A stretch of DNA of 64,000 nucleotides. It comes from a virus (taxonomy: Duplodnaviria > Caudoviricetes). Positions 28,678 through 55,234 of the stretch are shown piece after piece. The notes below the pieces were generated by a model. That model did no database searches. It worked only from the letters and a program-made list of their open reading frames with translations, and was not told the DNA's origin. The number at the start of each line of letters is the position of its first letter. The stretch's first letter is position 1. The position numbers and the translations under genes are program-made. The stretch lies in IMG/VR virus record IMGVR_UViG_2588253764_000003. One strand, written 5' to 3'.

Positions 28678-29424
28678 TTAATGCATGTTTTGTCGTTTCA
28701 TTTCTTGAGACAGTACCCCCATGCCTTTTGTGGTAATTTTAGCAGCTGGTACGACTTTTTCTGTTCCTTCTGTTGTTTGAATGGTGTGTGTAGGACAATC
28801 CATAAGACCTTTTTGGATTTTATCTTGATAAGGCAACAAAGGAGCCCCGAAAGTGCGTCGATACACCCATCCTTTTTTCTGTAGGAACTGAATGAACTGT
28901 TTTGGTTGCATTTCGAGAATTTTAGCCGCTTCAGTAAGACCGAAGAGCCCATCAGAGCGTTGCAAGCTTTCCAAAGCCATTGCTTTTGGTTTTAAATATT
29001 CAATGATAGTATCTTGTTGATCTATTTGTCCTTGTAGGTAATTCAAAAAGCCCATCATAGCTTTTGGACTTGAATAGTCGATTTGTTGTGGTATTGCTGC
29101 CTGCTTTGCACGTCGCTCGCATTCGATAAAGTATAAACGAGCTTGTTTTCCTTTTTCATTACGCTCTACCATGGAAAGTTCTTTTGCCATGTCTAATGTG
29201 AGAGCATAATCTTTAGAGGGACGACCACCTTGGAGGTTTTTCCCCAAATTGGGAAAAACTATATAATCTCTGTTTTCGACAAAATCATATTTGTTAATGC
29301 GTTCCATAATCCAGTCTGCAAACTTTTTACCTACTTCTAAAAAGGCATGCAATTCACGTGCGTTGACTGTTTGAACGCTTTCTTCGTTAATGGTGTTATT
29401 TGTAATAGCAATAGGATTATCCAT
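28678..29424 (-). CDS. Phage antirepressor (AntA/AntB + ANT/KilAC)
   Basis: VNARELHAFL, LTLDMAKELSMVE; TEAAK...KITTKG. Confidence 0.9.
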   Translation of the reverse strand: MDNPIAITNNTINEESVQTVNARELHAFLEVGKKFADWIMERINKYDFVENRDYIVFPNLGKNLQGGRPSKDYALTLDMAKELSMVERNEKGKQARLYFIECERRAKQAAIPQQIDYSSPKAMMGFLNYLQGQIDQQDTIIEYLKPKAMALESLQRSDGLFGLTEAAKILEMQPKQFIQFLQKKGWVYRRTFGAPLLPYQDKIQKGLMDCPTHTIQTTEGTEKVVPAAKITTKGMGVLSQEMKRQNMH

Positions 29425-34962: not shown

Positions 34963-35121
34963 AAAAAATAAAAAATACGTATTGACTTTAAAGAAAAGGT
35001 CGTTTATTAAGGTCGGCAAGTGCTGAAAACACTTAACGTTAAGCGGTTAAACCACGTAAGGTTTCTCCCATTTCTTAAAATACTGGCTTTCTTTTATGCT
35101 ATCATTGGCATATAACGATTA

Positions 35122-35204
35122 TGTCGGGTGTAGTCGCACCATACAATACTCTTTATGAGAAAAGTGTGACGACGGACTTAACGCCGTGTTTTCAACGCCC
35201 GGCG
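35122..35204 (+). ncRNA. C4-like antisense RNA (copy 3) upstream of rha
   Basis: CUUAACG and GUUUUCA complementary to CGTTAAG and TGAAAAC at 35024-35043 and 35222-35243; TTGACT -35 at 34982. Confidence 0.7.
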
Positions 35205-35255
35205 CCCTTATAGGGTGTCAATTGAAAACTTCATTACGTTAAGAAAGAATTTCAA

Positions 35256-35771
35256 ATGAACAATTTAGTAACAATCAATAATGGTATTGCTGTCACAACT
35301 TCTTTTAAAATTGCTGAGGGAGTGGGTAATACGCATAAAACAGTTATACAGTTGGTTCGTAAAAATATTAAAGATTTTGAAGAATTTGGAAGGGTCGCAT
35401 TTGAAATGCTACCCTTTAAAACGAAGGGTGGAAAACAAAAAAGAGAAGTTGCTATTCTTAATGAATCGCAAGCAACTTTACTTATGACATATATGCGCAA
35501 TAATGACACGGTGCGTGCATTTAAAAAGGCGCTTGTCAAAGCTTTCTATGAATTAAAAAGCCAATCAACAGCTCGTGATTTATTTTCTACGGAGCATGAT
35601 TTGTTTTCTTATGAAAGTTTAAAGGCTCCTGAGGGAATTGGTAAAGTTTTGGGAATGATTGCAGCGCGTTTATCGTATGTAAATGATTTACAAAAAGAGC
35701 TTGATCATTACAAATTGGTTACAACAGAAGCCAAGCGTGTTTTAACAAACGCTGTTGCAAAAGCAGCATAA
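35256..35771 (+). CDS. rha: Rha family phage regulatory protein
   Basis: TTS..IAEG....HK.V.QL.R....DFEEFG.V.FE...LNE.QATLL.TY.RN...VR.FK..LVKAF. Confidence 0.88.
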   Translation: MNNLVTINNGIAVTTSFKIAEGVGNTHKTVIQLVRKNIKDFEEFGRVAFEMLPFKTKGGKQKREVAILNESQATLLMTYMRNNDTVRAFKKALVKAFYELKSQSTARDLFSTEHDLFSYESLKAPEGIGKVLGMIAARLSYVNDLQKELDHYKLVTTEAKRVLTNAVAKAA

Positions 35772-36511: not shown

Positions 36512-36545
36512 ATAACGGGGCGGGGGGCTTCTTTATAGCAAAAAA

Positions 36546-37103
36546 GAAAGCCGTGTCCTTTAAAGACGCGGCTTTTGTTTTCACAGGAAATATATACATC
36601 ACACTAAATACATATTACACAAAACGTGTAAAAACACAAGCCTTAATATATAAAAACCGTATCAAAATGAATTGATACGGCTTTTATTTTCAAAACATCT
36701 CATTAGTAAGGAATTTGCTATAAACAAACTAACTAATAAATCACATATTTTGTGTATAAACGCAAGTTTATTTTTTCTCAATTTGCATCTTAAAATAGAT
36801 CATGTTACCATTCATTTGCAACGTTATTATAACGTTGCATGTTAACCGTTCCTTAGGTTAAAAAACTTTTTAAGAATCGCTACAAAACAAAGCCGTGTCA
36901 ATTAATTTGACGCGGTTTTTTTGTGTCTTAACGCTTGTAATTTTCCACATAATATACTACATATTGTATGACCTGAGAAATTGAAAAGTCGTGAAAGCCT
37001 TGTTATGTGTTTACGTAACGGGGCTTTCTTTTATGCTGGGGTTTGGTTTTCTTTATTCCATTTAAATGCATTAAAGCCGTGCCAATTTCTTGACACGGCT
37101 TCT
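36546..37103. terminator. Four related terminator-like hairpins (AAAGCCGTGTC...GACGCGGCTTT family)
   Basis: Copies at ~36547, ~36653, ~36889, ~37073; further copies at ~38947 and ~56673. Confidence 0.6.
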
Positions 37104-37292: not shown

Positions 37293-37525
37293 ATGGAACT
37301 TACAAATATGCTTAATAAAGTGATTTTAATTGGTCATTTAGGTGCAAATCCAGAAAGCAAAACAATGTCATCTGGCGCCGAGGTGGTCAATTTTCGTATA
37401 GCAACATCCGAAAGCTATACAGATAAGGCTACCAATAAGAAAATAGACAAAACAGAATGGCATTCCATTGTGGTGTTTAATCCACATCTTGCAAAAATAG
37501 CGCTTCAATATCTCAATAAAGGCAG
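37293..37525 (+). pseudogene. ssb: ssb 5' half, interrupted by island
   Basis: Matches 12508..12969 up to LQYLNKG then diverges. Confidence 0.9.
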
Positions 37526-39041
37526 ATTCGATATAATATCAAAAAATACAATGAAGTCAATAGCTTGTTTGTAATTATTTTATATGAATCCACTTAAGAA
37601 TCCATCTTTTTATGCATGATTCATTTGACTATTTTTTATATAAGATTGCCATGTATGAATAGATCATAAAAAGCAAATCATGATGCAAATATTATAACGC
37701 ATATAAACGTTCAAATGAAATGAAAAGCAGTTATCACTCATAACAGTTTATAAATCTTATGATACGTTTTTATCACAGCACAAATCACATTGTTTAAAAT
37801 TTAGTCGTTTAGAATTGTCGATAACACACGTTTAAAGATTATATCTTATTTTAAAGATTGGATTGTTAATCACATAAAAGAGTAAATTAACGTTCGCCAA
37901 AATTGGCGAGCGCAAAATAGAGAGTTGTTATAACAGCATCGTCATAACACCGAACATTTTAAAGATTGCATAATTGCATAAAGGATTTAAAGACACGATT
38001 GATTTTATAACCACGGTATTTTTTTACCGGGGTAGAAATAAAGGTAATGAAAATCACAATGTTATATCTTATGAAATGAAAAGCCTTTTAATGAATATAG
38101 TGCATAGCTAGTTTTGAAGAACGGAACTGTTCGCTTCCATAAAAAAATGGAGGCGCATAATGCCATAGAAGTAGAATACTATATACCTTAGACATGGTAT
38201 AAAAAACGTTTTAAAAGTTATCGTTTTAAAATATGAAACCAAATGAGATCTCCTCAAATTTGAGGGCATCTATTTTAGACAAAGATAAGCAAGTAAAATT
38301 CAAAACCGTTGTAACATCATAAGGCATAGGATTTACTTAATTTTGCTAGCCAAATAGAGCGATTAATTTGCAAAGAAGCTTTGTTTAAAATACGCTTATT
38401 ATGAAAGCCTTTCTAAATGAATGTTTAAACGTTTGAAACTAATGTTTATAATAATTTTTAAAACCTTCCATTTGATAAAAGCGGTTGTTGATTTATTTTA
38501 TGAGAGCTTGTTTTAAAAACCAGCGTTTGCAAATGTAAAAAGAACGTTTTTATAAGACATTCATTTAAGATGCATTTTCTTTTGATTGAATTGATAAAGC
38601 TACCAAACGTTTTAATATGTTTTGATTTTAGAAAATGCGTTATTTGAAATTCACTCAGCTCGATTTTGAGCTTAGTATATTGAAACGTTTTAAAAGAAGC
38701 ATTGTGATCATGGGCTTTGTTTTAAAAGCCCCCCTCACAAAGGAGGGTGTTATGATTGATACGTTTGAGATTAACAAAAAGCGTTTATAGGCTCTCTCAT
38801 TCAAAAGAGTGATTAAAGATCATACGCATCATTTACATTCCTTTTGATAAGTTTTCATATCTTGAATAGAGCGCTTGTAATATAATACGTTTTGTATATA
38901 TGAATTCATTACTCCATTTGGAATGATTCATAAGGGTAGACATTTGAAAGCCGCGTCATATCATTTGGCACGGCTTTCTTTTTGAATTCTCTCTTTTATG
39001 ATGGGTTTATAACCATCAAGAAGGCACCCCCATACCTATTT

Positions 39042-39821
39042 CTATTCTGTTTTATCAATAATCTTAACGACATTATCGCTTTGATAAACCTCACAATTTT
39101 TGGGAACTAACTTTGCTTTGCTTTTTGTATTGATTGTTGCATTGCCATAAGCACGCCCCCAGATCGTTGCACAATGTAAGATTTTTGCATTGCCATAGAC
39201 GGAGCCATAAACCTCACAAGAGCCCCCCACGCGCGCATTGCCATAGACCTTGCCATAAATCTTTGCACGACCATTAATCACAGCATAATTATAAATTTTG
39301 GCATGGCTATAAATGCAAGCAGAGCCACAAACCCTAGCATGACCATAGACGCGGGCATAACTAAAAACCGTAGCATCATAAGAAATATGCGCATGGTCAT
39401 AAATATGAGCATCAGCAAGAACGCGGGCAGCACCACTCACATGAGCATTGCCATAAACATTGCCATACACATGAGCACTCCCATAAACACAAGCCTGATC
39501 ATAAATCTTTGCATATTGAGAGATAAAAGCCTTGCTATAGACCTCGGCATTGCCATAAACTAGACCACAGACTTGCGAATAATGCCGTATTTTTGCATCA
39601 TCATAAACACGGGCATGACCATAGATACAAGCATCATCATAGACCCAGCAGTTACCATCATGGGATAGGTTAACTTCCTTTTCGATAAAACCACCTAAAG
39701 CACCCGCTTTTATATCATCAAAATCTCTTAAAGCCCGAATGCGATAAAGGCTTGTAATATTTCGCGTAAGAGCATGTTTGATTTTTTTGATTTCGCTGGT
39801 TAATTCGTATTTTTTGCACAT
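39042..39821 (-). CDS. YdcK-like hexapeptide-repeat protein (array 1, gene 4)
   Basis: Near-identical to 56769..57548. Confidence 0.85.
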   Translation of the reverse strand: MCKKYELTSEIKKIKHALTRNITSLYRIRALRDFDDIKAGALGGFIEKEVNLSHDGNCWVYDDACIYGHARVYDDAKIRHYSQVCGLVYGNAEVYSKAFISQYAKIYDQACVYGSAHVYGNVYGNAHVSGAARVLADAHIYDHAHISYDATVFSYARVYGHARVCGSACIYSHAKIYNYAVINGRAKIYGKVYGNARVGGSCEVYGSVYGNAKILHCATIWGRAYGNATINTKSKAKLVPKNCEVYQSDNVVKIIDKTE

Positions 39822-39889
39822 AGGAGTACCCTCACAATCTAATGTGATAAACGTTTTCTAAAATTTGAAATGGAAAATTGGATTGGAAA

Positions 39890-39912
39890 GCAGGCGCCCC
39901 CACAACGCCCGC
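39890..39912 (-). repeat. GC hairpin inter-cassette repeat (variant)
   Basis: GCGGGCGTTGTGGGGGCGCCTGC; stem retained. Confidence 0.65.
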
Positions 39913-39926
39913 CGCTGCTTTATTGA

Positions 39927-40505
39927 TTAAACCCAGACAATTTCTAACTCGCCATAAGGAGAGAGACGTTCAGTATAGGTTTTTATTTTAGTAGAGCCGC
40001 CGACATTTTCACGAATAACAGCAATGCCATGGATATGAGCATTTTCATAAATATGCACGTCATTTGCTATACGCGCGTTTTCATAAACCCTAGCATTGTC
40101 ATAAATATAGGCATTATCATAGATAATAGCCTTGCCATACACATGAGCATTGCCATAAACACGGGAATTATCAGAAACAACAGCATTGCCATAAACATGC
40201 GCATTATCATAAATATAGCCAGCAGCGATAGCATTATCATAAACGCGGGCATGACCATAGATATGACCACAAGCGACAGCCTTGCCAAAAACCCTTGCGT
40301 TTTCATAAACGTGACCATTTTTAAACACAAGAGCATCATCATAAACCCAGCAATTGCCATCATGAGAGAGGTTATCTTCCTTTTCGATAAAGCCCCCCAA
40401 GGCACCAGCTTTAACATAAGAAAAGTCTTTTAATGCTTGGATACGATAAAGGGTATGATTACCAAATACACGCGTTTCATTTGTGAGTGCAAACTTTTTT
40501 TGCAT
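39927..40505 (-). CDS. YdcK-like hexapeptide-repeat protein (array 1, gene 3)
   Basis: Near-identical to 57662..58240. Confidence 0.85.
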   Translation of the reverse strand: MQKKFALTNETRVFGNHTLYRIQALKDFSYVKAGALGGFIEKEDNLSHDGNCWVYDDALVFKNGHVYENARVFGKAVACGHIYGHARVYDNAIAAGYIYDNAHVYGNAVVSDNSRVYGNAHVYGKAIIYDNAYIYDNARVYENARIANDVHIYENAHIHGIAVIRENVGGSTKIKTYTERLSPYGELEIVWV

Positions 40506-40557
40506 AACACTATTCCTTTATAAAGAAGATTAAATTTTAAAATGAAATGTTTAAAGA

Positions 40558-40579
40558 GGGGCGCCCCCGCCGCGCCCGC
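40558..40579 (-). repeat. GC hairpin inter-cassette repeat
   Basis: GCGGGCGCGGCGGGGGCGCCCC just after a stop codon. Confidence 0.8.
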
Positions 40580-40586
40580 ACGTTAT

Positions 40587-41360
40587 TTACGCAGCGTCTT
40601 TTCTAGACTGATTATCATCACAAATATCATTCGTAATTTTTTCACGGCTATTAACCACGGCATTACCATAGATTTGTACATCATGATCAATATTGGATTT
40701 ACCATAGACCTTTGCATTTTCATAAATTCTTGCAAAGGACCCCACCCGAGCCGAGCCAGAAACCTTTGCATCATCAAAAATACTTGCAAAACTCTTAATC
40801 CAAGCATTACAAAAGACATGGGCATTGCCATAAATACACGCCCCCCCATAAATGCGTGATTTACCATAAACATGGGAATTCCCATAAACAAAGCCACTCA
40901 CATGAGCATTTTCATATACACGGGCATTATCATAAATATGTGCACTAGGAGAAACATTAGCATTATCACAAACCATGGCATTGCCATAAACTAGACCACA
41001 GATCCTAGCATTGTTACTAATTTTTGCATTGTCATAAATGCTAGCATCATGACCGAATACCCATGCCTTATCACAAACCACAGCATTCCCATAAACTTTA
41101 GCTTCCCTAGCAATAATGGCATCATGATGTATTTTTGCATTTTCAGAAACGACGGCATTGCAAAAAACGGTAGCATTATCGTAAACCCAGCAATTCCCAT
41201 CATGAGAGAGATTGCTTTCATTTTCAATAAAACCACCTAATGCCCCCGCCTTAACATCATCAAAATCTCTTAAAGCACGAATGCGGTGTACAGTAATCCC
41301 TTCAAAAGTATGATTTTCATTAGTCAATTCATATTTTTTAGATACAGTTATAGTGGACAT
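40587..41360 (-). CDS. YdcK-like hexapeptide-repeat protein (array 1, gene 2)
   Basis: Head plus many hexapeptides; ends DAA. Confidence 0.85.
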   Translation of the reverse strand: MSTITVSKKYELTNENHTFEGITVHRIRALRDFDDVKAGALGGFIENESNLSHDGNCWVYDNATVFCNAVVSENAKIHHDAIIAREAKVYGNAVVCDKAWVFGHDASIYDNAKISNNARICGLVYGNAMVCDNANVSPSAHIYDNARVYENAHVSGFVYGNSHVYGKSRIYGGACIYGNAHVFCNAWIKSFASIFDDAKVSGSARVGSFARIYENAKVYGKSNIDHDVQIYGNAVVNSREKITNDICDDNQSRKDAA

Positions 41361-41412
41361 AGGTAACTCCCTAAGTTTATATTTGATAAATTTTAGAATG
41401 AGTTGTTTAAAA

Positions 41413-41436
41413 GGGGCGCCCCCGCCGCGCCCGCGC
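41413..41436 (-). repeat. GC hairpin inter-cassette repeat
   Basis: Same core as 40558-40579. Confidence 0.8.
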
Positions 41437-41441
41437 GTTAT

Positions 41442-42173
41442 TTACGCAGCATCATTTTCATATTCGCTATCATCGTCATAATACCATTCACAATCAGCAT
41501 AATACTCATGACGGTAATAATCATCTTCACTTCCAAATTCTGGATATGCCTCATCCCAAATATGATCATCAGCAGTTAAAGAGGCAGCGCTATGAACATA
41601 AGAATCGCCAGAGATAAGAGCCCCACAAACCACAGCATCATCAAAAACACGCGAGCCATCACAAATATGAGCAGCGCCGCTTATTTTAGCATTGCCCCCG
41701 ACATGAGCATCATCACAAATAACGGCATCATCACAAATATGAGCATGATTAGTGACGCGGGCGTTATCATAAATTTTAGCATTACCTTCAATTACAACGG
41801 CATTGCTAACATGAGCATTGCCATAAAGCTTTGCATTGTCCTTTAATAACATGCCTTCAAAAATAGCATTACCATAAATTCTTGCATTACCACAAACATC
41901 AACAAAAAAGCTTTTTACTTTAGCATTGCCTGAAACCCTTGCATTTTGAAAGACGCGCGCTTTGTCATACACCCAGCAATTGCCTTTGTGAGATAAGTTA
42001 CTTTCGTTTTCAATATACCCCCCAAGATCGCCCGCTTTGACATCACCAAAATCTCTTAAAGCACGTATACGGTATAATATGAGACCAGTCACAAAATCCA
42101 TTTCGCCAGTAAACTCATATTTTTTAGATGTTTTTTTCTTATTAACGGGGGTAATTTTTGATATATTTTTCAT
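41442..42173 (-). CDS. YdcK-like hexapeptide-repeat protein (array 1, gene 1), acidic aromatic tail
   Basis: Head plus repeats; tail EDDYYRHEYYADCEWYYDDDSEYENDAA. Confidence 0.85.
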   Translation of the reverse strand: MKNISKITPVNKKKTSKKYEFTGEMDFVTGLILYRIRALRDFGDVKAGDLGGYIENESNLSHKGNCWVYDKARVFQNARVSGNAKVKSFFVDVCGNARIYGNAIFEGMLLKDNAKLYGNAHVSNAVVIEGNAKIYDNARVTNHAHICDDAVICDDAHVGGNAKISGAAHICDGSRVFDDAVVCGALISGDSYVHSAASLTADDHIWDEAYPEFGSEDDYYRHEYYADCEWYYDDDSEYENDAA

Positions 42174-42223
42174 AATTAAAGCCTTGATGTTAATATTGTT
42201 TTGAAATTGACACCCTATAAGGG

Positions 42224-42306
42224 TGTCGGGCGTTCAAAACACGGCATCAAGTCCGTCGTTACACTTTTCTCATAAAGAGTATTGTATGGTGTAACCACAC
42301 CCGACA
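42224..42306 (-). ncRNA. C4-like antisense RNA (copy 4), leader of array 1
   Basis: CUUGAUG and GUUUUGA complementary to CATCAAG and TCAAAAC at 42386-42406 and 42183-42205. Confidence 0.7.
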
Positions 42307-42944
42307 TAATCGTTATATGCTAATGTTAGCATAAAAGAAAGCCAGTATTTTAAGAAATGGGAAAGGTTGTTTCGTAACCTACCCGCTTGATGTTTAAGTG
42401 TTTTGATCACTTGATTATTTATATAACAAAATACGTATTTATTGTCAAATAATATTCTATCTTTTTTGATATTTTTTTGTATTTTTTTAGATACGTTGTG
42501 TATTGATAATATCTTATGCTTCTGAATTGCTTCTTTTATATTTATGTGCTTTTAAAGCTATATTATGGGCTTTCTGAAATGATTGAGTTATGTTTTGAAT
42601 CTATACATTTATAATATTTAGAAACGCTCTTATAATGCGTATTTTTATCTTTATAACCTATCAATTTTTTCACTAAATGAATTTTAATTTTTTTGTGAAT
42701 TTCTTTTATAACGCATTTGCAACTTAACAGCTTTTTATAGGGACCGTCTTTATAATCAATGATTTCATTTGCATTATGATTGTAAAACCTTCTTTATAAC
42801 TGTTATCTGTTTTATAGCCATCGCATCATTTTTCATTTTCATAAGAGAAACAATAAATAGGATAATTGCGATTTATAGACTGTTATGAAAATATCTAAAG
42901 AGAGATTGATAATTATAGAGATTAGAAAAATCCCTTTTAATAGG

Positions 42945-43445
42945 CTTTTGTCAGTTGTGTCAGTTTTGTCAGTTCTTTTTAGACCCTCTATTATTTTTTT
43001 AAATGAGAAAAATTAAAAACATTATATATCAATATGTTAATATCTTTAAAACATAACTCATATCAAGAGTACAATCTTTAAAGATAACCCATGATGTGAA
43101 TTGATTAAAACCTGTCAGTTATGTGTCAGTAAATTGAACCGACAAATTAGATTATTTTAGTAAGTCATTAAAACGTGTCTTATGAAAAGTGTATGACCTT
43201 TTAAAACCTTTCAAAAGATAGCTTGTAACTCATAAGAGATGCTATCAAGATCATTAGGTTATGAGTTTTGACGGGGTTTTGAGTTTTGAGGGTTGCTGCT
43301 ATTATGTAAAAAAACGATAAAAATAAAAACATTATATTTCAATGGATTAATATTTTATAGACCTTAAAAAAACAACTCATATTGATAATACAACCTCTAA
43401 ATTCAACCAATAATATACGTTTTGAGGGGGTTTTGACGGTTTTTA
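42945..43445. repeat. Iteron-like TGTCAGTT and TTTTGA(C/G)GG repeats (putative island origin)
   Basis: Clustered direct and inverted copies; conserved in island 2 (~60470-61075); reverse-oriented AAAACCCC repeats at ~49040-49210. Confidence 0.5.
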
Positions 43446-43787
43446 CACCTTCAAAACCTATAAGTAATATAAGAAAATGAATATACATAACTCTCTTTAA
43501 ACAAAGCTTTTGAAAACAATAAAGCACTCATTTTAGATTACGGTATAATCTCTTAAAGGCAATGTAAAAAAATCTAATTTTATTTAAGATGGGGTTTCTT
43601 AAAAGTCTTAAAGCAATCCAAAGTAGAGTATCTAAAAGTGCAAATGATTTCTTTTTAGAATAACGCATATAAACACTCCTTTTAAAGATTAGATGTAAGC
43701 AATTTATAAAGGGGGTATAGATTATGGTTATAAGCTCTATACCCCTTATGCGTTTATCATACCCATTATGTGAGCATGCTTTATAAG

Positions 43788-46700
43788 TTATTCAGTTTCT
43801 CTTAATACCAAATTTGGTAAGTTTTTTACGATTTTCATTGTTTCTAAACTTACGGTAATAACCTTTTGAAATAACTCTAGAGGGTAGGCAGGGTTGCCAA
43901 CGGTTTCAACAGCATAGCGATTGGCATCATTAACAATACCACTCTTTTTATCAGTCTTTACACATTGACGTCCCATAACCCATTCAAGAGCGGGTTTACC
44001 ATTGACGATATACTTATAAGCTTCAAGAGGGATATCTGTTATTGTGATATTGCTATTATAAATAACAGTGGTTTTATCTTTCTCTTTACCTGCTTTTGCG
44101 AATTTCATTTCAGTTACATAATAGAATTTTTCGGGATTAGAGATCTCTGTTTGTTTTGGATTGCCCTTTTTAAAGGTCACTGGATAAGGCTCTACATCTT
44201 CATAATTCACGTGCAGATGACCCAATTTACGCCCTGCTGTTACAAATTTCCAAAAATCATCAGCATTCTTTACACAAGGGATACGAGGTAATTCTTTAGA
44301 GAGGTTATCAGCATAACGAGAGCGATAATCTTTTGAATGAAGTAAACCGTAAACATAATAGAATAGATCATCTTTAGTGATAGTCTCATTAGGATAAGCG
44401 GCTTTAAAATGTGCTAATCCTTCATCAGTAATGGCATCACGCTTCTGTAAACCAGCTGTTGTGTTTGCTTCTGTAAATAAATGGGATTGGTTTTCACTTT
44501 TACTTTTTGAAACCGAAGTGTCTTCGTAAATATAACGTGGAAAACATTGACCACTCTCTATTGTAGTAAGATTAGGTATACTTTTAGCCATCAAAACAGA
44601 AAAACCACTTCTTGCGCCTATACCTGTAACTTGTATTACCTTATTTTCGACTACTTGCCCCATCGGAAATATACGCGGCATTTGGTAAGTTCTTTCATTA
44701 AAAATACGATTGTAATAGAGCCATTGCTTTGTAAAGGGACGATAAAGACTTTGAACTGAACAATTACTTTCAAATTCGGAAACTTTTCCTCTTACAAACT
44801 CTTCTTTTAGACTACTACTCCAACTGATTTTTTTAGCATCAACGTTAACAAAATTGTCTACAGCATTTTTACGTATCCTGCTATCAACATGCCCATAAGC
44901 ATTATTAAAACGTTCTACTTCACTATTATAGAAAGCAATCGTATTAGTCATATTTTTTGCTAAAACTTTACGGCTTGAATTGTACGCCCAAGCATCACGA
45001 TTGGTTGAAACTCCAAGAGAAAAATTTTCAAAAAGTTTTTTACCATGACCTTTTTTAACACCTAGAGCTAAGAACGCTTTGAAATTTTCATCACGTTGAT
45101 GAATCCAATCACCATGTTCATCCGGCGTAATTGTTTGCCATTTTTGTTTACGCGTAATGCCATCAATACTACCAAAGAACTTGATTATCTTAAGTTTTTT
45201 TGTAGTAGAAAGATTATCTCCAATGTCATGATAGTAAATTTTACAATCTCCAGAAACACTAGGATTTTTGATAAATAGTGTCACAGCAATACCGGTCATA
45301 CTTCCATTGCAAAAAATATTTTCTCCTTCTTGAGCAGTTCCATTGCTTAACATATTTTTACGTATATCCCCTCGTAAATTAAGCACATAAATACTTGTAA
45401 ATTCTTTGGCTAAAGATTTTCGTAAGCCAGCCATTGTCGACTTTTCTATATAACCAGAGCCAGAAACAAAGCCGATTACCCCAGCATTCTCAATACGGTC
45501 GCTTGCCCAGCGTATAGCACGAATATAACTGTCATATAACTTTTGCGTACTAGTTGCTCTAGATTGAGCGGCGTAAGTTTCACCGATACGTTTATTTAAT
45601 ATGGGATAGGGAGTATTCTTTGCATTATCATTTTCATTTTTTTGTCCTACGGAATAAGGGGGGTTACCAAAGATAACTTTAATATTTAGATTTTTCTGAA
45701 GTTCCAAATATTCACTGTTTTCTTTAAACAATTCCTGTAGCAGATTTTTCTCTTCAAGCATCCGAAATGTATCAGTCAAACCAATATGCTTGAAAGGGAT
45801 ATACTCACCTTTCATAAGACTATGATAAGTCGATTCAATGTTAATGGCTGCTATGTAATAGGCAAGCAAAACAATCTCATTGGCATGGATATCATGACGG
45901 AACTTATATTCCATATCCTCTGGTTTGATAAGATCTGATTGTAATAGCCTTGTGATAAAGGTTCCTGTACCTGTAAAAGGGTCAAGAATAGAGACACCCC
46001 GTGAACCAAGGCTTTTTCCAAATTCATTCCGCAATACATCATCAACAGAATGAATGATAAAATCAACAACCTTAACGGGCGTATAAACAATTCCAAGCTT
46101 ATCCGTGGTTTTTTTAAATGCCTTGGCAAAAAAGCTTTCATAAAGTTTGATAATAAGATTCTGTTTTGCATGAGTTTCCGTAATGCCTGCTGTACAGAAC
46201 GTGACACTTTTGTAAAATTTATCAAGATCTTTCGTTTTCTCTTCGATATTGGTTTTATCCAGTTCCGTTAAGATCTTATCCATAGCTTGCGAAATGGCAT
46301 TGTTCTGTACAAATTCATTACCGTCAAATAAAGCTTCAAACACGGGACGCGTGACAAGATGTTGGGCTAACATCTCAATCGCTTCCTCTTTTTTGATTTC
46401 ACTGTTGACGTTGTTCTTTAATTCCTTATGAAAGGCATCAAAAGCATGAAAGGCTTCACTCTTTTCATCGGAAATCATATCTTTAAGATGATTGATATGG
46501 TTTTGAGCAATCTCAGCAACATTGTTCGCCCATATGCCCCAATAATCCGTGATTTTAAAACTATCCAGAAAAATGGCTTTGACAAAATCAAAAAATTCAG
46601 AACGGCGGAATAAGTCTCCTTGTCCTCCAGATACCGGTTGAGATTTTCTTTCTGCTGTTCCAATGGTATGCCCAGAACTTTCTGTTTTTGATGGTATCGA

Positions 46701-48746
46701 GATCTCATCAACCGTTGTGGTAAGCTCTTTTAATTCATTGGCACGCTTAATTTCTATAATCTCAATCGTATGGCTGCTATCTTGTCCTAAAGACATTTGA
46801 TTAATCGTCCGTGCAAGTCTCTCATCATGAGAATGTAAAGCATCCAAAACTTGCCAAACAACACGGTATCTCTTATTGTTTTTTAAAGCCTTTTTGGCTT
46901 CTAAGTGTGAAGGAATGATAATAGGTAAAATGATATAGCCCGTTTTCTTATTTGGAGCACGACGCATCACACGCCCCACCGCCTGTATCACATCCACTTG
47001 GCTATTGCGCGGGTGTAAAAACATGATGGCATCAAGAGCAGGGACATCAATCCCTTCAGACAGACACCGAACATTGCTTAAAATCCGACAAACGTTTTGA
47101 CCCGTATCTTCTTTAAGCCAATCCAATTCCTCATTGCGTTTTTTGACGCTTTGCGTTCCGTCGATATGTCTTACTTCACAGTTCAAAAAAGGAACGGTTT
47201 GAAGGAAATCATCAATATGAGATTTGATAATTTTATTGAAGAGCTTTGTAATATATTGAGAGGTGTTGATATCTTTGCAAAAAGCTAAAGCACATTGCAT
47301 GGGCTCTGTATCATCATCATCGATAGCTGCTTGCTTATCTATTTTAGTCAGTGCTCTATAACAGCCAATAATTTTTGCCGCATCATCTAAATCAATTTCA
47401 CGGTTTTCATTGGCAATAATCTCCTGTATGGCTGGTGTGATATAGGTTTCATTAATACCCAAGACCACAATCTTGTAAGGAGTTAAAAGTTCATTATCGA
47501 CAGCTTCCGCGAAGGTATAATGATGGAGTTGTTTTCCAAAAAGCGTTTCGTCATCCATAGATGCGAGAACGGCATTAATCTCATCAGCGCGCCTTTTGGC
47601 AGTGTCACTAAAGATACGAGGCGTTGCTGTCATATACAAACGTTTCTTGCCTCGAATAATGCTGTTATCGTGAACCTTGATAAATTCGGATTCATTGTCT
47701 TCATTTCCCAATGAAGCCCCAGTGGTTCTATGCGCTTCATCGCAAATGATCAGATCAAATTCGGGTAAACCATGATCCTTTTGCGCATCCGAAATCACTT
47801 GGATAGAATGGTAAGTTGAAAAGACCACGGTCATTGCATCGGCTAGGTTTTCGCAAGCTTCTTTGGCAAGGGCTTGTGCATCTGTGGTAGCAGGGAGAAC
47901 AAGATCTGATGTTTCCATGCCAACGATATCCTCTTGGTTTTTACGACGCTTGCCTACTTTCGTATCCGAACACACCGCAAAGGAACGCAACGAGATTTGT
48001 GCATCGGCTGTCCATTCACGGATTGTTTGCGAGACTAAAGCCAGAGAAGGAACCAAAAACAAAACACGCTTGCCTTTCCCAGCAAGGGTTTCTGCTATCT
48101 TCAAACTGGTGAAAGTCTTCCCCGTACCACATGCCATGATCAGCTTGCCACGGTCTGCTTCTTTTAAACCTTCACAGACTTTCTTGATGGCTTCTTCTTG
48201 ATGGGGACGAGGCTTTTTTGTTGATTTCAGAACCACTTCTTTTTTTGTTGCAAATATTTGCCAATCTATCCGACTGTTTTCCATATGACGAAGGTCAATG
48301 CGATAAATGGGTATCGCTTGTCCTTTAATCATGGCATTCACATTGTCACTTAATTCCACTTCCGTGCTGTCAACGAGAAGACGATATTTAAAGATGTCTT
48401 TTCCAGATGCCGCGATAAAGCTATCAATATCCTTTTTACTGATCTGATGATCTGCTTGATAAAACTTACATTGAATAGCGACATAGCCCTCTTGATGACG
48501 AAGCTTGGCAACCAGATCAATGCCGATATCATTTTTATTCCAATCTTCACGTTCTTTCGCCCATTCATAATAGCTCTCAACTTTTTCATATCGCCCATAA
48601 TGGAGAGGGTCATGCATAAGATATTTTGTCACAAAATCTTCAAACACTTTCCCCCGTAGAGCATTTGATGTTGCCTGTTCACGATAGGATTGTAAAAGGG
48701 AGCGTAAAGTGACGTGTTCATGATCAGAGTTAACATATTGCAGCAT
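43788..48746 (-). CDS. Type ISP restriction-modification enzyme (Mrr-like nuclease + SF2 helicase + N6A methylase + TRD)
   Basis: GIDLVA..AIQCKFY, MACGTGKT, ICDEAH, MTATP, QAVGRVMR, LDPFTGTG, GNPPY; LlaGI/LlaBIII architecture. Confidence 0.92.
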   Translation of the reverse strand: MLQYVNSDHEHVTLRSLLQSYREQATSNALRGKVFEDFVTKYLMHDPLHYGRYEKVESYYEWAKEREDWNKNDIGIDLVAKLRHQEGYVAIQCKFYQADHQISKKDIDSFIAASGKDIFKYRLLVDSTEVELSDNVNAMIKGQAIPIYRIDLRHMENSRIDWQIFATKKEVVLKSTKKPRPHQEEAIKKVCEGLKEADRGKLIMACGTGKTFTSLKIAETLAGKGKRVLFLVPSLALVSQTIREWTADAQISLRSFAVCSDTKVGKRRKNQEDIVGMETSDLVLPATTDAQALAKEACENLADAMTVVFSTYHSIQVISDAQKDHGLPEFDLIICDEAHRTTGASLGNEDNESEFIKVHDNSIIRGKKRLYMTATPRIFSDTAKRRADEINAVLASMDDETLFGKQLHHYTFAEAVDNELLTPYKIVVLGINETYITPAIQEIIANENREIDLDDAAKIIGCYRALTKIDKQAAIDDDDTEPMQCALAFCKDINTSQYITKLFNKIIKSHIDDFLQTVPFLNCEVRHIDGTQSVKKRNEELDWLKEDTGQNVCRILSNVRCLSEGIDVPALDAIMFLHPRNSQVDVIQAVGRVMRRAPNKKTGYIILPIIIPSHLEAKKALKNNKRYRVVWQVLDALHSHDERLARTINQMSLGQDSSHTIEIIEIKRANELKELTTTVDEISIPSKTESSGHTIGTAERKSQPVSGGQGDLFRRSEFFDFVKAIFLDSFKITDYWGIWANNVAEIAQNHINHLKDMISDEKSEAFHAFDAFHKELKNNVNSEIKKEEAIEMLAQHLVTRPVFEALFDGNEFVQNNAISQAMDKILTELDKTNIEEKTKDLDKFYKSVTFCTAGITETHAKQNLIIKLYESFFAKAFKKTTDKLGIVYTPVKVVDFIIHSVDDVLRNEFGKSLGSRGVSILDPFTGTGTFITRLLQSDLIKPEDMEYKFRHDIHANEIVLLAYYIAAINIESTYHSLMKGEYIPFKHIGLTDTFRMLEEKNLLQELFKENSEYLELQKNLNIKVIFGNPPYSVGQKNENDNAKNTPYPILNKRIGETYAAQSRATSTQKLYDSYIRAIRWASDRIENAGVIGFVSGSGYIEKSTMAGLRKSLAKEFTSIYVLNLRGDIRKNMLSNGTAQEGENIFCNGSMTGIAVTLFIKNPSVSGDCKIYYHDIGDNLSTTKKLKIIKFFGSIDGITRKQKWQTITPDEHGDWIHQRDENFKAFLALGVKKGHGKKLFENFSLGVSTNRDAWAYNSSRKVLAKNMTNTIAFYNSEVERFNNAYGHVDSRIRKNAVDNFVNVDAKKISWSSSLKEEFVRGKVSEFESNCSVQSLYRPFTKQWLYYNRIFNERTYQMPRIFPMGQVVENKVIQVTGIGARSGFSVLMAKSIPNLTTIESGQCFPRYIYEDTSVSKSKSENQSHLFTEANTTAGLQKRDAITDEGLAHFKAAYPNETITKDDLFYYVYGLLHSKDYRSRYADNLSKELPRIPCVKNADDFWKFVTAGRKLGHLHVNYEDVEPYPVTFKKGNPKQTEISNPEKFYYVTEMKFAKAGKEKDKTTVIYNSNITITDIPLEAYKYIVNGKPALEWVMGRQCVKTDKKSGIVNDANRYAVETVGNPAYPLELFQKVITVSLETMKIVKNLPNLVLRETE

Positions 48747-49277
48747 ATTATAACAGAGCTCCGTTTTGGTATGAGAGGATTAATTCTTTTCAAAAGAATC
48801 AAAATGAAGCTTATTAAATCTATTTTGAACGAATTGAGAAAAAATGCAGAAAAATGCATAAAAACGGATAATTTTTTTTCAAAATGGTTTTTTAAAGGTT
48901 GTTTATCCACAGCTTATGACATGGAATAAGATCAGCAAAGTAGTAAAATTTGCTATTCGTTTCACGGGTTAATCAAGACAAATGCGCTATGGGCTTTAAA
49001 ATATCAGAATGAGTATTTTGATAGGTTTTGTCTGTTCTTAAAACCCCCAAAACCCCTACAAAACCCCTTTTTATATATATCATAGATTGTATTTACTGAT
49101 TGTATTTAATATAGGTTGTTTCTTTAAAACATTAACATATTGAAATATAATAACTTTTGTTTTTGTTTAAAAAAATAAAATAATACGTACAAAAAGCCCC
49201 CCCAAAACTCATAATGGGGAGTGCTTTGAAGAGTTCACTGTTATATTGTTAATGTTCTATAAGATTTCCAAATTGCC

Positions 49278-49710
49278 TCAGTGTGATGTTTTATGGCTTG
49301 TCACTAAGGGATTCCATTCATAGCGTATGGTAGGGCGACCGCCTTGTGAGCTCTTGTCTCCAGAGATTTCACGAATATAGTTACAACGGCATAAAAGCTC
49401 TAAAGCTTGCTTAACGGCTCCATTATCTTTGAAACATTTCCAATCACGTTTATAAATATCCCTTGTTGTAAAAACATCGGGTAAACAATCACAACGTTCG
49501 ACAATTAATTTTGCCCCCTCTGTTGCTAAGCTATCCGCCGCCGCATAGAGCCTTTTGACATGACTTAATAGATAACTTGTCCAACGCAAGGCTGTTGTGA
49601 TGGCATAGGGTCCAATTTCTAAACGACCACCGTCAAGAAGTTCAAAAATCAACGCAAGGCTTGCTATGGTCTTAGGCATTTTTAAAAGATGCGATTGTAA
49701 ACTTTCTGAG
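49278..49710 (-). pseudogene. C-terminal remnant of DUF3987/YfjI-like satellite replication protein
   Basis: SHL.KMPKT..SLALIF.L...YL.SH..RLY...GGRP...Y..NP; N-terminus absent. Confidence 0.65.
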
Positions 49711-50132
49711 TGAGCCCTCCATTATGATTTTTTATTAAAGGAAAAAAATAACAGTAATCATTTCAGATTTACACAATGAAAGAAAACTTTTTAGTTTTTC
49801 TGTTAGTGATGAAAATGTATTTCAAACAATAATGAGTATGTTTTCAATTAATTTAAGTGATCCATAATTACATTTCGAATACGAATTTGGTATATACAAA
49901 AATGACTTTAGACTTAGCTAAATATTGCTATGAAGAATACAAACAGAACTAAGAAAATGAGAAATAAAGATTTTTTTGATTTTATGAAGAAAGAAATAGC
50001 ATGACTAATATCCAGTAGAAATATTTCGTTTGGTAGTTTTGCCCTTCAAAAAAGCTATATAAACGAGAGATTTTCATTTAACCATTATTTTTAAAGATGT
50101 GTAAAAACCTTTGTTATAAGTACTTTATTGAG

Positions 50133-50555
50133 TTAGAAATCTATACCAATAGCTTTGGCTTGCATTTTTTCGTAGAGTTTTTGCATTGCCTTGATATTTT
50201 CTCTTCGCACATCAATAATCGATTTTTCAATAGATGTTAAACGCGCTTTGTCCAGATTTCCTAGTCGTGTATAATGGGATGCCATCGCTTTCCGTGCTTC
50301 ATCATAAGGCAATCCGCCTTTTCGGTGCTTTGATAGACTATGTCCCCTATTTATCGCATCATATTTCTCAGGATTGGAAACTAGTTTTATGTGATCCTTA
50401 ACAACACCTATTTCAATTAATGCTGTTTCAAGGCTACTAACCATAGCTTTACTATTAGCATACCGAAGCAAATCATCCTTTATAAAGTCACTTTCCGTAT
50501 CAATAAGCAATGGTAAATCACCATTTTTACCAACATCACGAATATGATCACACAA
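50133..50555 (-). CDS. Hypothetical protein (possibly 5'-truncated)
   Basis: 140 aa ORF downstream of 50650..50955. Confidence 0.55.
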   Translation of the reverse strand: MCDHIRDVGKNGDLPLLIDTESDFIKDDLLRYANSKAMVSSLETALIEIGVVKDHIKLVSNPEKYDAINRGHSLSKHRKGGLPYDEARKAMASHYTRLGNLDKARLTSIEKSIIDVRRENIKAMQKLYEKMQAKAIGIDF

Positions 50556-50649
50556 ATTATTTCGTACATTGTGTAATTTTTGAGATACTAATGTCTTTTC
50601 AAGGTCTTGTACTAGTACACTTTGTTGTAAAAAAAGCTTTTCTAATTTA

Positions 50650-50955
50650 TCAGAAATGATGACCTCCTATTACAACCCCTTTATCTAACCAGTCTGGACC
50701 ATATTCCTCATCAGCATTCTTTGTAGAAAAGCCCATATCACGAATAAATTGTGCTCCACGTTGATGTCTAAGATGTAAAAGTGCATGTGCTGGATATTCA
50801 GCCATTGCTAACCACTCCCACGTTGTTTTGCTATCATTCGCCTTAGAAGCTGCTTCTGCCTCGACCATATAGATACTGTTTTGAGGGAGACCACCTGCTC
50901 GTAACTCCTCACGTTCAGCATCAGTCATATAACTTTTGGGTAATTTCTTTTGCAT
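50650..50955 (-). CDS. Hypothetical protein
   Basis: 101 aa; AAGGA RBS. Confidence 0.65.
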   Translation of the reverse strand: MQKKLPKSYMTDAEREELRAGGLPQNSIYMVEAEAASKANDSKTTWEWLAMAEYPAHALLHLRHQRGAQFIRDMGFSTKNADEEYGPDWLDKGVVIGGHHF

Positions 50956-51162
50956 AGGAAATTCCTTTCTGTAATCTGTCTTAAAATACTAATCTAATGG
51001 TTAGATCTGATCAATCAAATTTCCTATGAATTTTTCAATTTGTTGTTGAAATTAAATAAAATATCTGTTTTTATCTTTGATCATTTTGATTTTTTGTATA
51101 AAAGAAAATTATCGTTTTTTCTGATACTAATGTATACACTTAATTGACGTTCTTTATTGCAC

Positions 51163-51420
51163 GTGACACAATTTTATGCATACTTACGGATTTCTCCTGA
51201 TGGACAAGATACAGAAAATCAAAAACTTGGATTGTTAGAATAAGCTAACAAAAATGGTTTTGCTTCACTCCATATTGAATAGAAACTGTAAATAGAAGGA
51301 AAGCTTAGTGCTTTAATCGAAAAAACAGAGCAGGGGATTGTTATTGACATTTGAGTTTTTTGTATAGCCGATTTTCTCTTAATGTTTTAGAACTTCTTAA
51401 AGATGTTAGTGAGCGTAATT
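51163..51420 (+). pseudogene. Serine recombinase (resolvase) N-terminal remnant
   Basis: FYAYLRISPDGQDTENQKLGLLE*ANKNGF with several stops. Confidence 0.65.
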
Positions 51421-51652
51421 TATAAGGTAAGCCAATTTATTAAGGGATAACAGCCTATCATCATGAGCAGGGCAATGAGCAAGTCCATAACGCCCATGCC
51501 AACCTCCACACAAGGCATGTGTAATACCCCGCGCATTCTTAAAAGAACACATCATTTTAAATCCTATAACGTTGCGTCACAGGACGGATTGTGCTAGCTC
51601 TAAGGTGATGAGTTTGAGAAAGCCTTGTCCGTCCTTACGTGACAAGGTTTTT

Positions 51653-51853
51653 TTATGCCACGTCGTTATAACGTTGCTGTTTCGCTTGTTCGATTACATT
51701 CAAGAGATCCGATTGTAACCAACGGGATAAAAAACCAAATTTTAAAGGTTTTGGGAGAGAGCCATTGGTAACATGACGGCGAAAAGTTGAGACACTCATA
51801 TGAAGCAATTTTGCACTTTCACGGTCTGTTAAAAGAATATCATTTTCTGTCAT
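51653..51853 (-). CDS. AlpA-family regulator/excisionase
   Basis: S.STF.R.V..G.LPKP.K.G..SRW. Confidence 0.85.
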   Translation of the reverse strand: MTENDILLTDRESAKLLHMSVSTFRRHVTNGSLPKPLKFGFLSRWLQSDLLNVIEQAKQQRYNDVA

Positions 51854-52061
51854 TCTAAAATCCTTTCATAATAAAAAATAGAACCAAATCATGCCTATTT
51901 ATTAAGCACATTTTGGTTCATTTTTGAAGGTATTTTATTTATAGAAAACAATATTTTATCATACAATTTCTGATGTGATAAATTATGAGTCTTATTGAGA
52001 AAGAATGAGAGAGAAGAGAGAGAAAGTTATCCACAGATCATGGGGTTATGCACCCCATATT

Positions 52062-53228
52062 CTAAGATTGACCAGTGACATAAGCCGCCCATTTATCCAT
52101 ATAGACACGGCGCTGTTCTAGATAGTCAGTACGACGATAGGCACGCTCTACTTGTCCTCCGACCGTATGACTTAGAATAGTTTCAGCGACCTCATAGGGG
52201 GCATCGGTTGTTTCAGCAAGCCAATCGCGTAAACTAGAGCGAAAACCATGGGGGCAGGCTTCAATTTTATTTTTTCTCATGTAAAGATACATACACTTCT
52301 CAGCAAGGGGACCGCGACCTTTAGCAGAAAAAAAGAAATCATTACGAGAAAGCAAGCGCGCTTGTTTTAAAATTTCTAATGCTTCAGATGATAAAGGCAC
52401 ACGAAATTCTGTTGTAGCATCACGCTTTCCTTTCATATTTTCGGCAGGAATAGTCCAGATATCATCTTCAATCTGATCTTCACGAATATGACGTAAAGGA
52501 TTTGTGCGAACGCCTGTCAGAATAAGCAAACGCAAAGCCAATTGTGTCATAGTTATTTTTTGACAAAGTGTTTTATAAAAAGCGGGCACATCTCTCCAAT
52601 CCATTGCAGGTAAGTTTTTTATTTTATGGCGTTGTTTACCTAAGAGAGCGCGTGCTTTTTCGGTTGCCTGTAAATCAACATCCAACCCTAAGGCAGCCGC
52701 ATGTTTGAGACAAAGATGAAGACGATTAAGAGCTCTATAAGCAGTTCCAGCTTTTGTATGCCAAATAGGGGCAAGTGTATTGCGTATCTCTGTTTGGGTA
52801 ATCTCAGAAACGGGCAGACAGCCTAATTTGGGGAGAATATGAAGGCGTAATGGTAAAAACCAACTTCCATTCTTACCATCATTTTTTAATTCAGATTTCC
52901 GACTTTCAAAAGCATCTAAAGCAATGTCTTTTAAATAATGGAGATTGCTTATTGCCTCACGCTTTTGTTTCTCACGTTCTTTAATGGGGTCACGACCCTC
53001 ATGCAAAACAGAACGCCATTGATTTGCTAATTCACGGGCTTTTTTTAAAGAAACGTTTCGCAACGCACCCAATCCCATTTCGCGGCGCCGACCATGAATG
53101 GTATAACGGTAAATCCATTGAGCACCTCCATCTTTACGCTTGTGAAGTAACAAGCCGGCACCATCATTATATTTGCCAGCCCCCAATGTTGCGACAGATC
53201 TTGCATTAAGACGGTTCATAAGAGCCAT
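52062..53228 (-). CDS. int: P4-like tyrosine integrase (island 1)
   Basis: DG.GL.L...W.YRY...G.RREMGLG arm domain; TGVR, HGFRSS.RDW, LSH...VERAY. Confidence 0.93.
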   Translation of the reverse strand: MALMNRLNARSVATLGAGKYNDGAGLLLHKRKDGGAQWIYRYTIHGRRREMGLGALRNVSLKKARELANQWRSVLHEGRDPIKEREKQKREAISNLHYLKDIALDAFESRKSELKNDGKNGSWFLPLRLHILPKLGCLPVSEITQTEIRNTLAPIWHTKAGTAYRALNRLHLCLKHAAALGLDVDLQATEKARALLGKQRHKIKNLPAMDWRDVPAFYKTLCQKITMTQLALRLLILTGVRTNPLRHIREDQIEDDIWTIPAENMKGKRDATTEFRVPLSSEALEILKQARLLSRNDFFFSAKGRGPLAEKCMYLYMRKNKIEACPHGFRSSLRDWLAETTDAPYEVAETILSHTVGGQVERAYRRTDYLEQRRVYMDKWAAYVTGQS

Positions 53229-53405
53229 TTTTAAATCCTTTCTTATACAAATTTGATCCACACACTCATCCCACTTGTTATGTGCAAATGAGTGGTTTTG
53301 ATTGATTCAAGATAAACAGATTTGAAATGAGAGAATCCTACGTTATTCTGGTCTTTAATTCCATATGAATAATGCTAAATTATCATTATAAATCAATATC
53401 TTGTC

Positions 53406-55120: not shown

Positions 55121-55234
55121 ATGACATCACAAAATACAGAACAGATTTCTCAAACAAAGAAAAAATATAAACCCCCTAAGGCAGGAATGGGGCGGGTTAA
55201 AGGTGTACCCAATAAGAATACACATTGTAAATAA
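55121..55234 (+). pseudogene. N-terminal fragment of putative terminase small subunit, interrupted
   Basis: GGAGG RBS; AGMGRVKGVPNK.T motif; similarity to the island 1 left end starts at ~55235. Confidence 0.5.

Follow-up and report, generated by a model that had tools for sequence, protein, structure and literature searches.

The AntA and Rha 'antirepressors' are among the commonest unexplained regulators of phages. One protein of the Rha/antirepressor type, Roi of phage HK022, reportedly binds a site inside its own gene; that system comprises one protein and one site with an adjacent IHF site, and includes neither an allele code nor a non-coding satellite collection. CRISPR arrays and viral mini-arrays are variable, modular stores of short phage-derived sequences beside a conserved leader. 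According to the accessible part of its description, AriS of Listeria phage phi10403S carries an AntA/AntB domain that acts on its own phage only, and its overexpression lowers phage transcription, replication and virions; that part reports no binding site, palindrome, EMSA or satellite (PMC9043618). Rha proteins, as stated in the available portion of another study, stop phage growth in hosts without IHF (PMC4936722). The main text of the HE-PICI satellite study, in the part available, makes no mention of palindromes, operators or Bartonella (PMC10111431), and the accessible account of the fha-repeat of Bartonella grahamii includes no non-coding palindrome tract or antirepressor link (PMC2697382). 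In the literature searched, which is thin for subscription journals, we found no account of intragenic AntA/Rha palindromes, of a code or of a satellite collection, and the operator array analyzed here is undescribed in that literature.

The original prediction, made from the letters of the DNA, held that the non-coding end of an island keeps the palindromes of several antirepressor alleles, as a decoy, sensor or memory array. The analysis bears this out in part: the tract holds intragenic palindromes of several AntA and Rha alleles, which share a single position of origin within the gene, and a decoy, sensor or memory function is a hypothesis.

Island 1 and its setting

The window, a 64,000-nt stretch, makes up the first half of a virus record of 127 kb, and every named relative of its genes is from Bartonella; the genome containing this DNA is referred to as G086. 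Judged by its gene content, Island 1 is an integrase/AlpA satellite-like element that splits the prophage ssb gene. Its features and flanks are as follows.

37293-37522, plus strand: 5' half of the prophage ssb (Pfam SSB 1-70/104; 81% to the intact ssb at 12508-12969, up to 37522)
37523-53392: Island 1, satellite-like integrative element, ends approximate (ssb similarity breaks at 37522 and restarts at 53393)
37530-37830, plus strand: conserved non-coding island end (leader), 88-92% between the five contig islands
38946-38978: inverted repeat flanked by A/T tails on each side, inferred to be the probable terminator of the YdcK-repeat operon
39042-42173, minus strand: four YdcK beta-solenoid repeat genes (Pfam PF18836)
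42217-42305, minus strand: sRNA-Xcc1-like RNA motif in a leader common to prophage ant/rha operons (Rfam RF02221, 50.9 bits, under the gathering score of 53)
43788-48746, minus strand: Type ISP restriction-modification gene, island cargo (Pfam)
49278-49679, minus strand: DUF3987 helicase/primase, C-terminal remnant of 133 aa (a 495-aa full-length gene is found in islands 2 and 4)
51653-51853, minus strand: AlpA-like excisionase/regulator (PHROG 9834, 66)
52062-53261, minus strand: tyrosine integrase with an Arm-DNA-bind_3 domain (Pfam)
53393-53636, plus strand: 3' half of the prophage ssb

The leader is present in 50 of 90 Bartonella genomes, with about 11 copies in G086. A YdcK-repeat gene adjoins the tract in 81 of the 84 flanks that have a near match, and a YdcK search across the family gave matches in 3 of 151 genomes. 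Hairpins related to 38946-38978 also follow the prophage YdcK gene at 36541-37101, where five alike GC-stemmed hairpins stand in series between that gene and ssb. The leader of the island YdcK operon (42205-42413) is similar to 35017-35223 (87%) and 9368-9562 (72%); together with 59743-59830, these correspond to the prophage ant/rha operon leader, in the island without an ant gene. Rfam gave no match within the tract in a search of 34000-64000. RNA runs, in which 5-8% of words were found for four contig sets, consisted of short pieces mostly from the YdcK genes and are too sparse for the tract.

Sister islands and insertion sites

One prophage (window 37523-64000 and on along the contig to 127254; L001-L003) bears five related islands, and four further copies of the tract are found on the contig, each at an island end. 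The sister islands cut phrog_11043 (which adjoins terL and is probably terS), the portal gene, phrog_24697 and the major head gene. Across the collection, junctions fall in terL, ssb, portal, terS-like, capsid and integrase genes and in other islands, and the integrase family of these islands seems to have a very relaxed choice of site. Island 1 targets ssb; late genes are targeted by islands 3 and 5 and at seven terL junctions elsewhere. Island genes lie on the strand opposite to the interrupted gene, and the plus strand of the tract runs the same way as the interrupted or adjacent gene; this layout is the same in 31 of the 35 annotated junctions. In another setting, a 23-kb second contig of G086 (L671:5931-20000) holds an island copy with tract, YdcK genes and Type ISP gene in a small replicon that carries resolvase, ParA and Rep-like genes.

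The homologous tract of island 2 is compared with that of Island 1 below.

55233-56768, plus strand: island 2 homologous tract, with an additional TCCC unit at 55700-55749 and without unit 3

The five contig islands differ by gain and loss of whole units, and in none of these islands was an AntA/Rha match of gene length found. Over the whole contig, antirepressor snippets are confined to the five tracts, one isolated site at 84960-85021 and a few weak AT-rich matches. The isolated snippet (L002:960-1021) is a lone 62-nt AntA piece with a CGCC palindrome that lies in island 3, upstream of an fha/hec-like locus.

Palindromes of the Island 1 tract

All five palindromes lie where they had been predicted, and each consists of a 4-bp arm, a 6-nt A/T spacer and a second 4-bp arm (cores starting at 37895, 38015, 38137, 38252 and 38658). 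Five such sites in the 861 bp of 37890-38750 are far above expectation: 2000 dinucleotide shuffles gave a mean of 0.31 and none reached five, and 267 other contig windows of equal size have at most three each. Against the N-terminal coding regions of 278 AntA/Rha genes, units 1-5 scored 49.1, 41.9, 73.4, 47.3 and 41.0 bits, whereas only 21 of 300 shuffled tracts gave any match, the top one at 37.4 bits. Each unit, with its flanks, matches the palindrome of AntA/Rha genes at codons ~45-60.

37831-37884, plus strand: helix-coding segment of AntA (FxDWI) in decayed, remnant form; matches AntA genes at 78% over 54 nt (44.6 bits)
37891-37931, plus strand: unit 1, AntA operator-like, arm class CGCC, core 37895-37908; AntA genes of the L231/L310 type match at 85-87% over 39-41 nt
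38004-38038, plus strand: unit 2, AntA operator-like, class GGTA, core 38015-38028, 41.9 bits to the AntA gene in L511 (FITAVNFYRG)
38130-38205, plus strand: unit 3, AntA operator-like, class CCAC/CCAT, core 38137-38150, downstream codons frameshifted, 82% over 77 nt to L500/L054, 73.4 bits
38242-38293, plus strand: unit 4, Rha operator-like, class CCTC, core 38252-38265, 47.3 bits
38644-38680, minus strand: unit 5, Rha operator-like, class GCTC, core 38658-38671; its best match, to L303, is antisense (84% over 37 nt, 41.0 bits)
38732-38747: additional small inverted repeat, without a match in the AntA/Rha set

The alleles matched are LRSPNLASAK/LRSPKLGSAK for unit 1 and, over 77 nt, RFHKKMEANN for unit 3; the site of unit 4 stands in gene context in four intact Rha genes, L675-L678 (LLKFEGTYLDK). 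The minus strand of unit 5 reads YTKLKIELSEFQ and matches the TELKIELN/TDLKIEVS alleles. The peptide readings of the palindromes given in the original prediction are correct. Its statement that all units read in the sense direction holds for units 1-4 and fails for unit 5, which has its better Rha match on the minus strand. The statement that only a few codons of context are kept is contradicted by the helix-coding remnant at 37831-37884 and by the 76-nt span of unit 3; gene context of up to ~100 nt is retained in the tract. Searched by blastn against a phage collection, the tract gave matches at chance level only. Bro-N was discarded as a source of the unexplained palindromes, being found in just 3 of 90 Bartonella genomes (the search was for Bro-N, as distinct from KilA-N, ORF6N and P22_AR_N).

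Intragenic palindromes in AntA and Rha genes

We collected 411 AntA/Rha N-terminal coding regions, of which 278 remained after removal of duplicates (175 AntA; the two Rha subfamilies contribute 82 and 21). In 250 of these 278 genes, the centre of the strongest palindrome falls within codons 40-80, and the palindrome varies from allele to allele. All five ant/rha genes on the contig carry a palindrome inside the coding sequence of the DNA-binding domain.

9141-9166, minus strand: palindrome of antA 8619-9332, class CCCC, helix KDFSTW
14276-14305, minus strand: palindrome of antA 13933-14481, class TCCC, helix KRFATW
21282-21295, plus strand: palindrome of rha 21121-21852, class ATCC; the gene has an in-frame stop
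29236-29259, minus strand: palindrome of the host-prophage antA 28678-29424, class TCCC, helix KKFADW
35390-35416, plus strand: palindrome of the host-prophage rha 35256-35771

In the rha-KilAC gene at 21121-21852, the in-frame TAA directly precedes the palindrome; the AntA-like gene ahead of it (20753-21079) carries a stop and has no clear palindrome.

An AlphaFold model of AntA (73 sequences, pLDDT 86.7) places helix 35-45 after helix 22-29, with the motif xxFxxW beginning the second helix, and the palindrome codons form a low-confidence loop joining two strands. The best VIA-align fold match of the model is the Mbp1/KilA-N winged helix, at a middling Z of 6.8 (rmsd 3.0, 79 residues); Foldseek gave no match to the model at E<=0.001.

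A second operator is stacked in frame in about 15 of the 278 intact genes by a loose rule, including two in G086. Among intact AntA/Rha genes, L652, L654, L502, L679, L684 and L693 hold two or three distinct operators that are stacked in frame within the wing loop. Such stacking offers a possible recombination route to the tract. The conserved ENQDF codons, 30 nt ahead of the AntA operator, form an exact IHF consensus in 27 of 175 AntA genes. By the same exact matching, which misses degenerate sites, the consensus is found elsewhere in 1 of 82 Rha genes, and in 2 of 90 tracts.

Helix residues predict the palindrome of the same gene

The variable residues of the putative recognition helix predict the arm sequence of the gene's own palindrome, and do so irrespective of overall kinship: distant pairs with the same helix mostly share the arm, and close pairs with different helices mostly differ in it. 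The test comprised 147 of 175 AntA genes and 65 of 82 Rha genes, the others having been dropped for stops, a missing motif, no operator call or identity. Among AntA pairs below 55% identity, which are not independent, the arm is shared by 20 of 28 pairs with the same helix versus 40 of 1739 with different helices; at 75-90% identity, with the same dependence between pairs, the values are 102 of 109 versus 55 of 589. The corresponding values for Rha are 111 of 126 versus 10 of 486 below 55% identity and 88 of 97 versus 2 of 143 at 75-90%. Different helix positions track different arm bases. In 79 thinned AntA rows, which are not independent, z is 19-26 for the helix columns, whereas the background has a median of 1.7 and peaks at 12.9 beside the helix; in 32 Rha rows, likewise not independent, the helix reaches z 19.9 against a background of 2.1 and a maximum of 16.4. 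Because the helix and the palindrome lie ~80 nt apart, linkage adds to this covariation. Lys/Arg pair with G on one strand, Asp with C and Asn with A, and these are the pairings expected of direct readout.

The relationship also holds out of sample. With the CGCC site alone as the query, 80 of at least 115 matches were taken, yielding 25 AntA genes, 19 of them distinct and 15 with a readable helix; at least three of the genes picked derive from records already in the gene set. All 15 have an [RK]DF[ST]NW helix, compared with 22 of 147 in the background. Similarly, all four Rha genes retrieved with unit 4 have KRHDN, compared with 3 of 65 in the background.

With the helix predicting the arm sequence both within and out of sample, we consider it most likely that the palindromes are self-operators and that the tract is an operator library of many alleles; that the units are binding sites we regard as quite probable. 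The helix-to-palindrome table amounts to a compact natural recognition code and provides exact, testable targets for dozens of alleles, the first in the literature searched.

The tract across Bartonella

From 130 complete tracts, 91 were non-redundant, and 90 were analyzed after one 3-kb fusion had been dropped. The tracts lack substantial open reading frames, as had been claimed for Island 1: the longest are short, with a median of 49 aa over the 90 tracts. Matches to the AntA/Rha gene set occur in 88 of the 90. A palindrome centre is included in 391 of 464 non-overlapping best matches, with a median of 4 per tract (range 0-9) and a spacing of 29-673 nt. In total, 315 of these 391 units are sense and 76 antisense (AntA, 188 sense and 33 antisense; Rha, 127 and 43), the shortest matches being uncertain in this respect. 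Match coverage is highest within 20 nt of the operator centre, and a net frameshift is found in 114 of the 391 alignments.

The prediction that the rest of each gene is missing agrees with the absence of gene ends from the tracts. Profile searches of the tracts found nothing for the first ~20 codons or past codon ~80. In the 90 tracts, the C-terminal halves of the five contig ant/rha genes had no match, and the N-terminal coding part had one weak match. Nor does a tract align colinearly with one or two whole decayed ant genes; instead, the same segment recurs 3 to 9 times, from two families and on both strands, which, with the absent gene ends, rules out a single decayed ant or rha gene.

An AntA helix-coding remnant precedes unit 1 in most tracts. 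Around units 1 and 3 the gene context is preserved in its original order, and the front of the tract was therefore probably seeded by a captured piece of antA. AntA was found in 45 of 50 tract-positive versus 20 of 40 tract-negative genomes, a comparison confounded by kinship and assembly quality. The site of the Rha subfamily represented by gene 35256 occurs in none of the 90 tracts.

Conservation and covariation of the arms

All four arm pairs are intact in 220 of the 391 units (56%), against roughly 15-28% expected, by a rough estimate, if the arms drifted like their flanks; a further 127 units have one mismatch. Comparison across island homologues revealed both unit gain and loss and arm covariation, the two patterns that the original prediction had proposed to look for. 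Double-sided arm changes number 21, 6 and 28 cells in slots 1, 2 and 4, in which 89 of 100, 81 of 84 and 108 of 124 cells are paired versus shuffle means of 63, 71 and 77; none of 2000 shuffles, which ignore kinship, attained the observed pairing. Slot 3 is nearly invariant. Slot 5 has no covariation and many broken pairs (61 of 96 paired) and is decaying in many relatives. Arm versus near-flank conservation in slots 1-5 is 0.72/0.83, 0.91/0.80, 0.94/0.78, 0.71/0.80 and 0.82/0.88. The arms are thus better kept than their flanks in slots 2 and 3 but less so in slots 1, 4 and 5, in two of which the lower value arises because the arms switch symmetrically. Neutral gene conversion could be a source of these symmetric switches. 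Identity to the genes is 87.6% within 11 nt of the centre and 78.0% outside. Unit pairs of the same class within a tract number 35 of 824, versus 66 +/- 8 by chance, with descent as a confounder.

Slot 1 of L439, L387, L412, L126 and others has a symmetric TCTC arm class that is absent from the AntA genes collected; it represents either an allele not sampled here or a change of both arms that took place in the island. We take the tract to be real and under selection, with a putative function.

Palindrome arrays beyond Bartonella

Viral contigs were scanned twice for paired motifs, which gave 7 and 13 loci, with one record common to both. Non-coding clusters of at least four such palindromes include L680/L688, L681, L690, L695 and L696; L679, L684 and L693 are in-frame palindrome stacks. 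The L680 record is a 12.4-kb capsid-forming satellite-like element with terminal repeats and head and terminase genes, unrelated to the Bartonella islands. Its helicase belongs to the same PHROG as that of the Bartonella islands; it has no AntA or Rha match and carries its own palindrome array, in which direct repeats separate the palindromes.

In the 12.4-kb capsid-forming record (L700:2780-3335, G091), antirepressor-type palindromes spaced 61-68 nt apart alternate with direct repeats of 25-30 nt; the layout resembles CRISPR, but the ORFs scanned include no cas gene. At L681:660-1110 (G092), a phage with an antirepressor gene of its own has about nine palindromes within a 450-bp non-coding stretch close to its repressor end.

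A proposed role as decoys

We propose that the tract is an AntA/Rha operator library of a prophage-embedded satellite and that its sites act as decoys, a reading that we consider evenly balanced between right and wrong. In AntA/Rha genes, the palindrome lies where the flexible wing loop is encoded. Each protein, as a dimer, would very probably bind the palindrome of its own gene and read it through a small number of variable residues that open the recognition helix, so that the palindrome would serve as an allele-specific intragenic operator limiting the gene's own operon. Because it is allele-specific, an intragenic operator of this kind would explain the own-phage specificity of AriS. The island took up 30-100 nt pieces centred on the sites of different alleles, the reading frames were lost, and its set of sites was updated through recombination with phage alleles. 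The least certain steps follow: the sites may work as decoys, either while the islands are replicated along with the helper in which they are embedded or while an island replicates itself; island copies may then exceed the single operator of the helper and pull AntA/Rha protein off it. Either the timing of helper gene expression or the amount of the KilAC domain attached to the protein may thereby shift in the island's favour, whichever allele the helper has. An island with sites for many alleles would gain because it is carried and copied inside many different prophages. The host prophage has a single copy of its TCCC operator in antA, and three more copies lie in the embedded islands 2, 4 and 5. 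Island 1 lacks the operators of both antirepressor genes of its host prophage. Among the 24 AntA/Rha matches in G086 (14 AntA, 10 Rha), no gene has the cognate helix for its GGTA and CCAC classes, and the GCTC class has just a broken cognate gene. The missing host operators, two missing cognate helices and one Rha subfamily that is never collected speak against a close fit to the present helper. The broken primase/helicase of Island 1, the broken pairs of slot 5 and invariance of slot 3, and the rarity of the IHF consensus in the tracts also weigh against the proposal.

The same sites might instead be used in cis, bound AntA or Rha acting on the island itself as a road-block to entering helper transcription, as an excision or int-promoter signal across attP, or in some way that benefits the site-bearing DNA. 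We find this possible but rather unlikely. It is consistent with the fixed distance of the first unit from the island end (counted from the leader start, a median of 331 nt with an IQR of 298-334), with the co-orientation of tract and interrupted gene, and with the foreign operators stacked in frame in intact ant genes, which suggest cross-regulation in cis; an outward promoter-like site at 37560-37533 would also fit, at a level not above chance. However, the sites extend over ~800 bp and vary in number, order and orientation, they overlap no clear promoter (7 promoter-like sites versus 9.8 expected), and the YdcK operon is already closed by the hairpin at 38946-38978.

The palindromes could also be neutral relics, the leftovers of ant/rha genes that were captured with their wing segments stacked, in which recombination-prone palindromes are refreshed by gene conversion. 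The remnant before unit 1, the next codons after unit 3, the retained gene order, the ant-operon leader likewise captured by the island, the decay of slot 5 and the good conservation of leader and spacers all fit such an origin, which we nevertheless judge improbable given the absence of the coding ends, the higher gene identity around the centre, the excess of units with all pairs intact, the few duplicates per tract (subject to the same confounding by descent) and the independent arrays of unrelated elements. At the RNA level, the units would be transcript hairpins that mimic or pair with ant/rha mRNAs. The predominance of sense units and the C4-like RNA motif within Island 1 agree with this, but the tract has no Rfam match, units occur in both orientations, the fixed 4+6+4 geometry and the helix-to-base covariation fit readout of double-stranded DNA, and antisense pairing would favour unstructured flanks, which are the parts lost; we consider an RNA role very improbable.

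For the decoy reading, the wider implication is an AntA/Rha family that is self-addressed through a positional code, with satellites of unrelated hosts having independently evolved updatable, non-coding operator libraries that catch the regulators of whichever helper is present, and this exploitation driving allele diversification. We advance this tentatively, at slightly less than even confidence. If true, the arrays are a new DNA-only weapon in the conflict between satellite and helper. The arrays show that something about occupying these sites is selected, and they make the role of Rha, Roi and AntA directly testable.

Comparison with known systems

The Bartonella genes resemble that of Roi in that a protein of the same type has a site, here putative, in its own coding sequence; unlike the Roi site, the tracts are mostly without an IHF consensus under exact matching. 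AriS, in the accessible part of its description, has the same AntA/AntB plus KilAC architecture as the products of 8619-9332 and 28678-29424 (PMC9043618).

Island 1 acts like a helper-embedded satellite yet lacks several HE-PICI features. As far as the available text of the HE-PICI study goes, both kinds of element have an integrase, an AlpA-like gene and a primase/helicase, split prophage genes (portal, major head), possess a C4-like RNA and are linked to Bro-network families including AntA and pRha (PMC10111431). Island 1 is integrated in and splits a prophage gene and has an integrase followed by AlpA, but its target is not a late gene, its own primase/helicase is broken and its genes are not co-oriented with the interrupted gene. 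By comparison with the same part of that study, Bartonella island genes face against the interrupted gene, the targets are many, including early genes and other islands, no late genes are captured, and the Bro-network contribution consists of operators rather than genes (PMC10111431).

A CRISPR array was ruled out, as the tract is without regular direct repeats and without nearby cas genes, none being found among the 70 window ORFs scanned. Between the units there are short AT-rich chance repeats only, and their spacing of 29-673 nt is likewise unlike that of CRISPR. Like CRISPR arrays and mini-arrays, the tract consists of modular, variable, phage-derived pieces next to a conserved leader; unlike in CRISPR, all pieces derive from one and the same site in a single gene superfamily.
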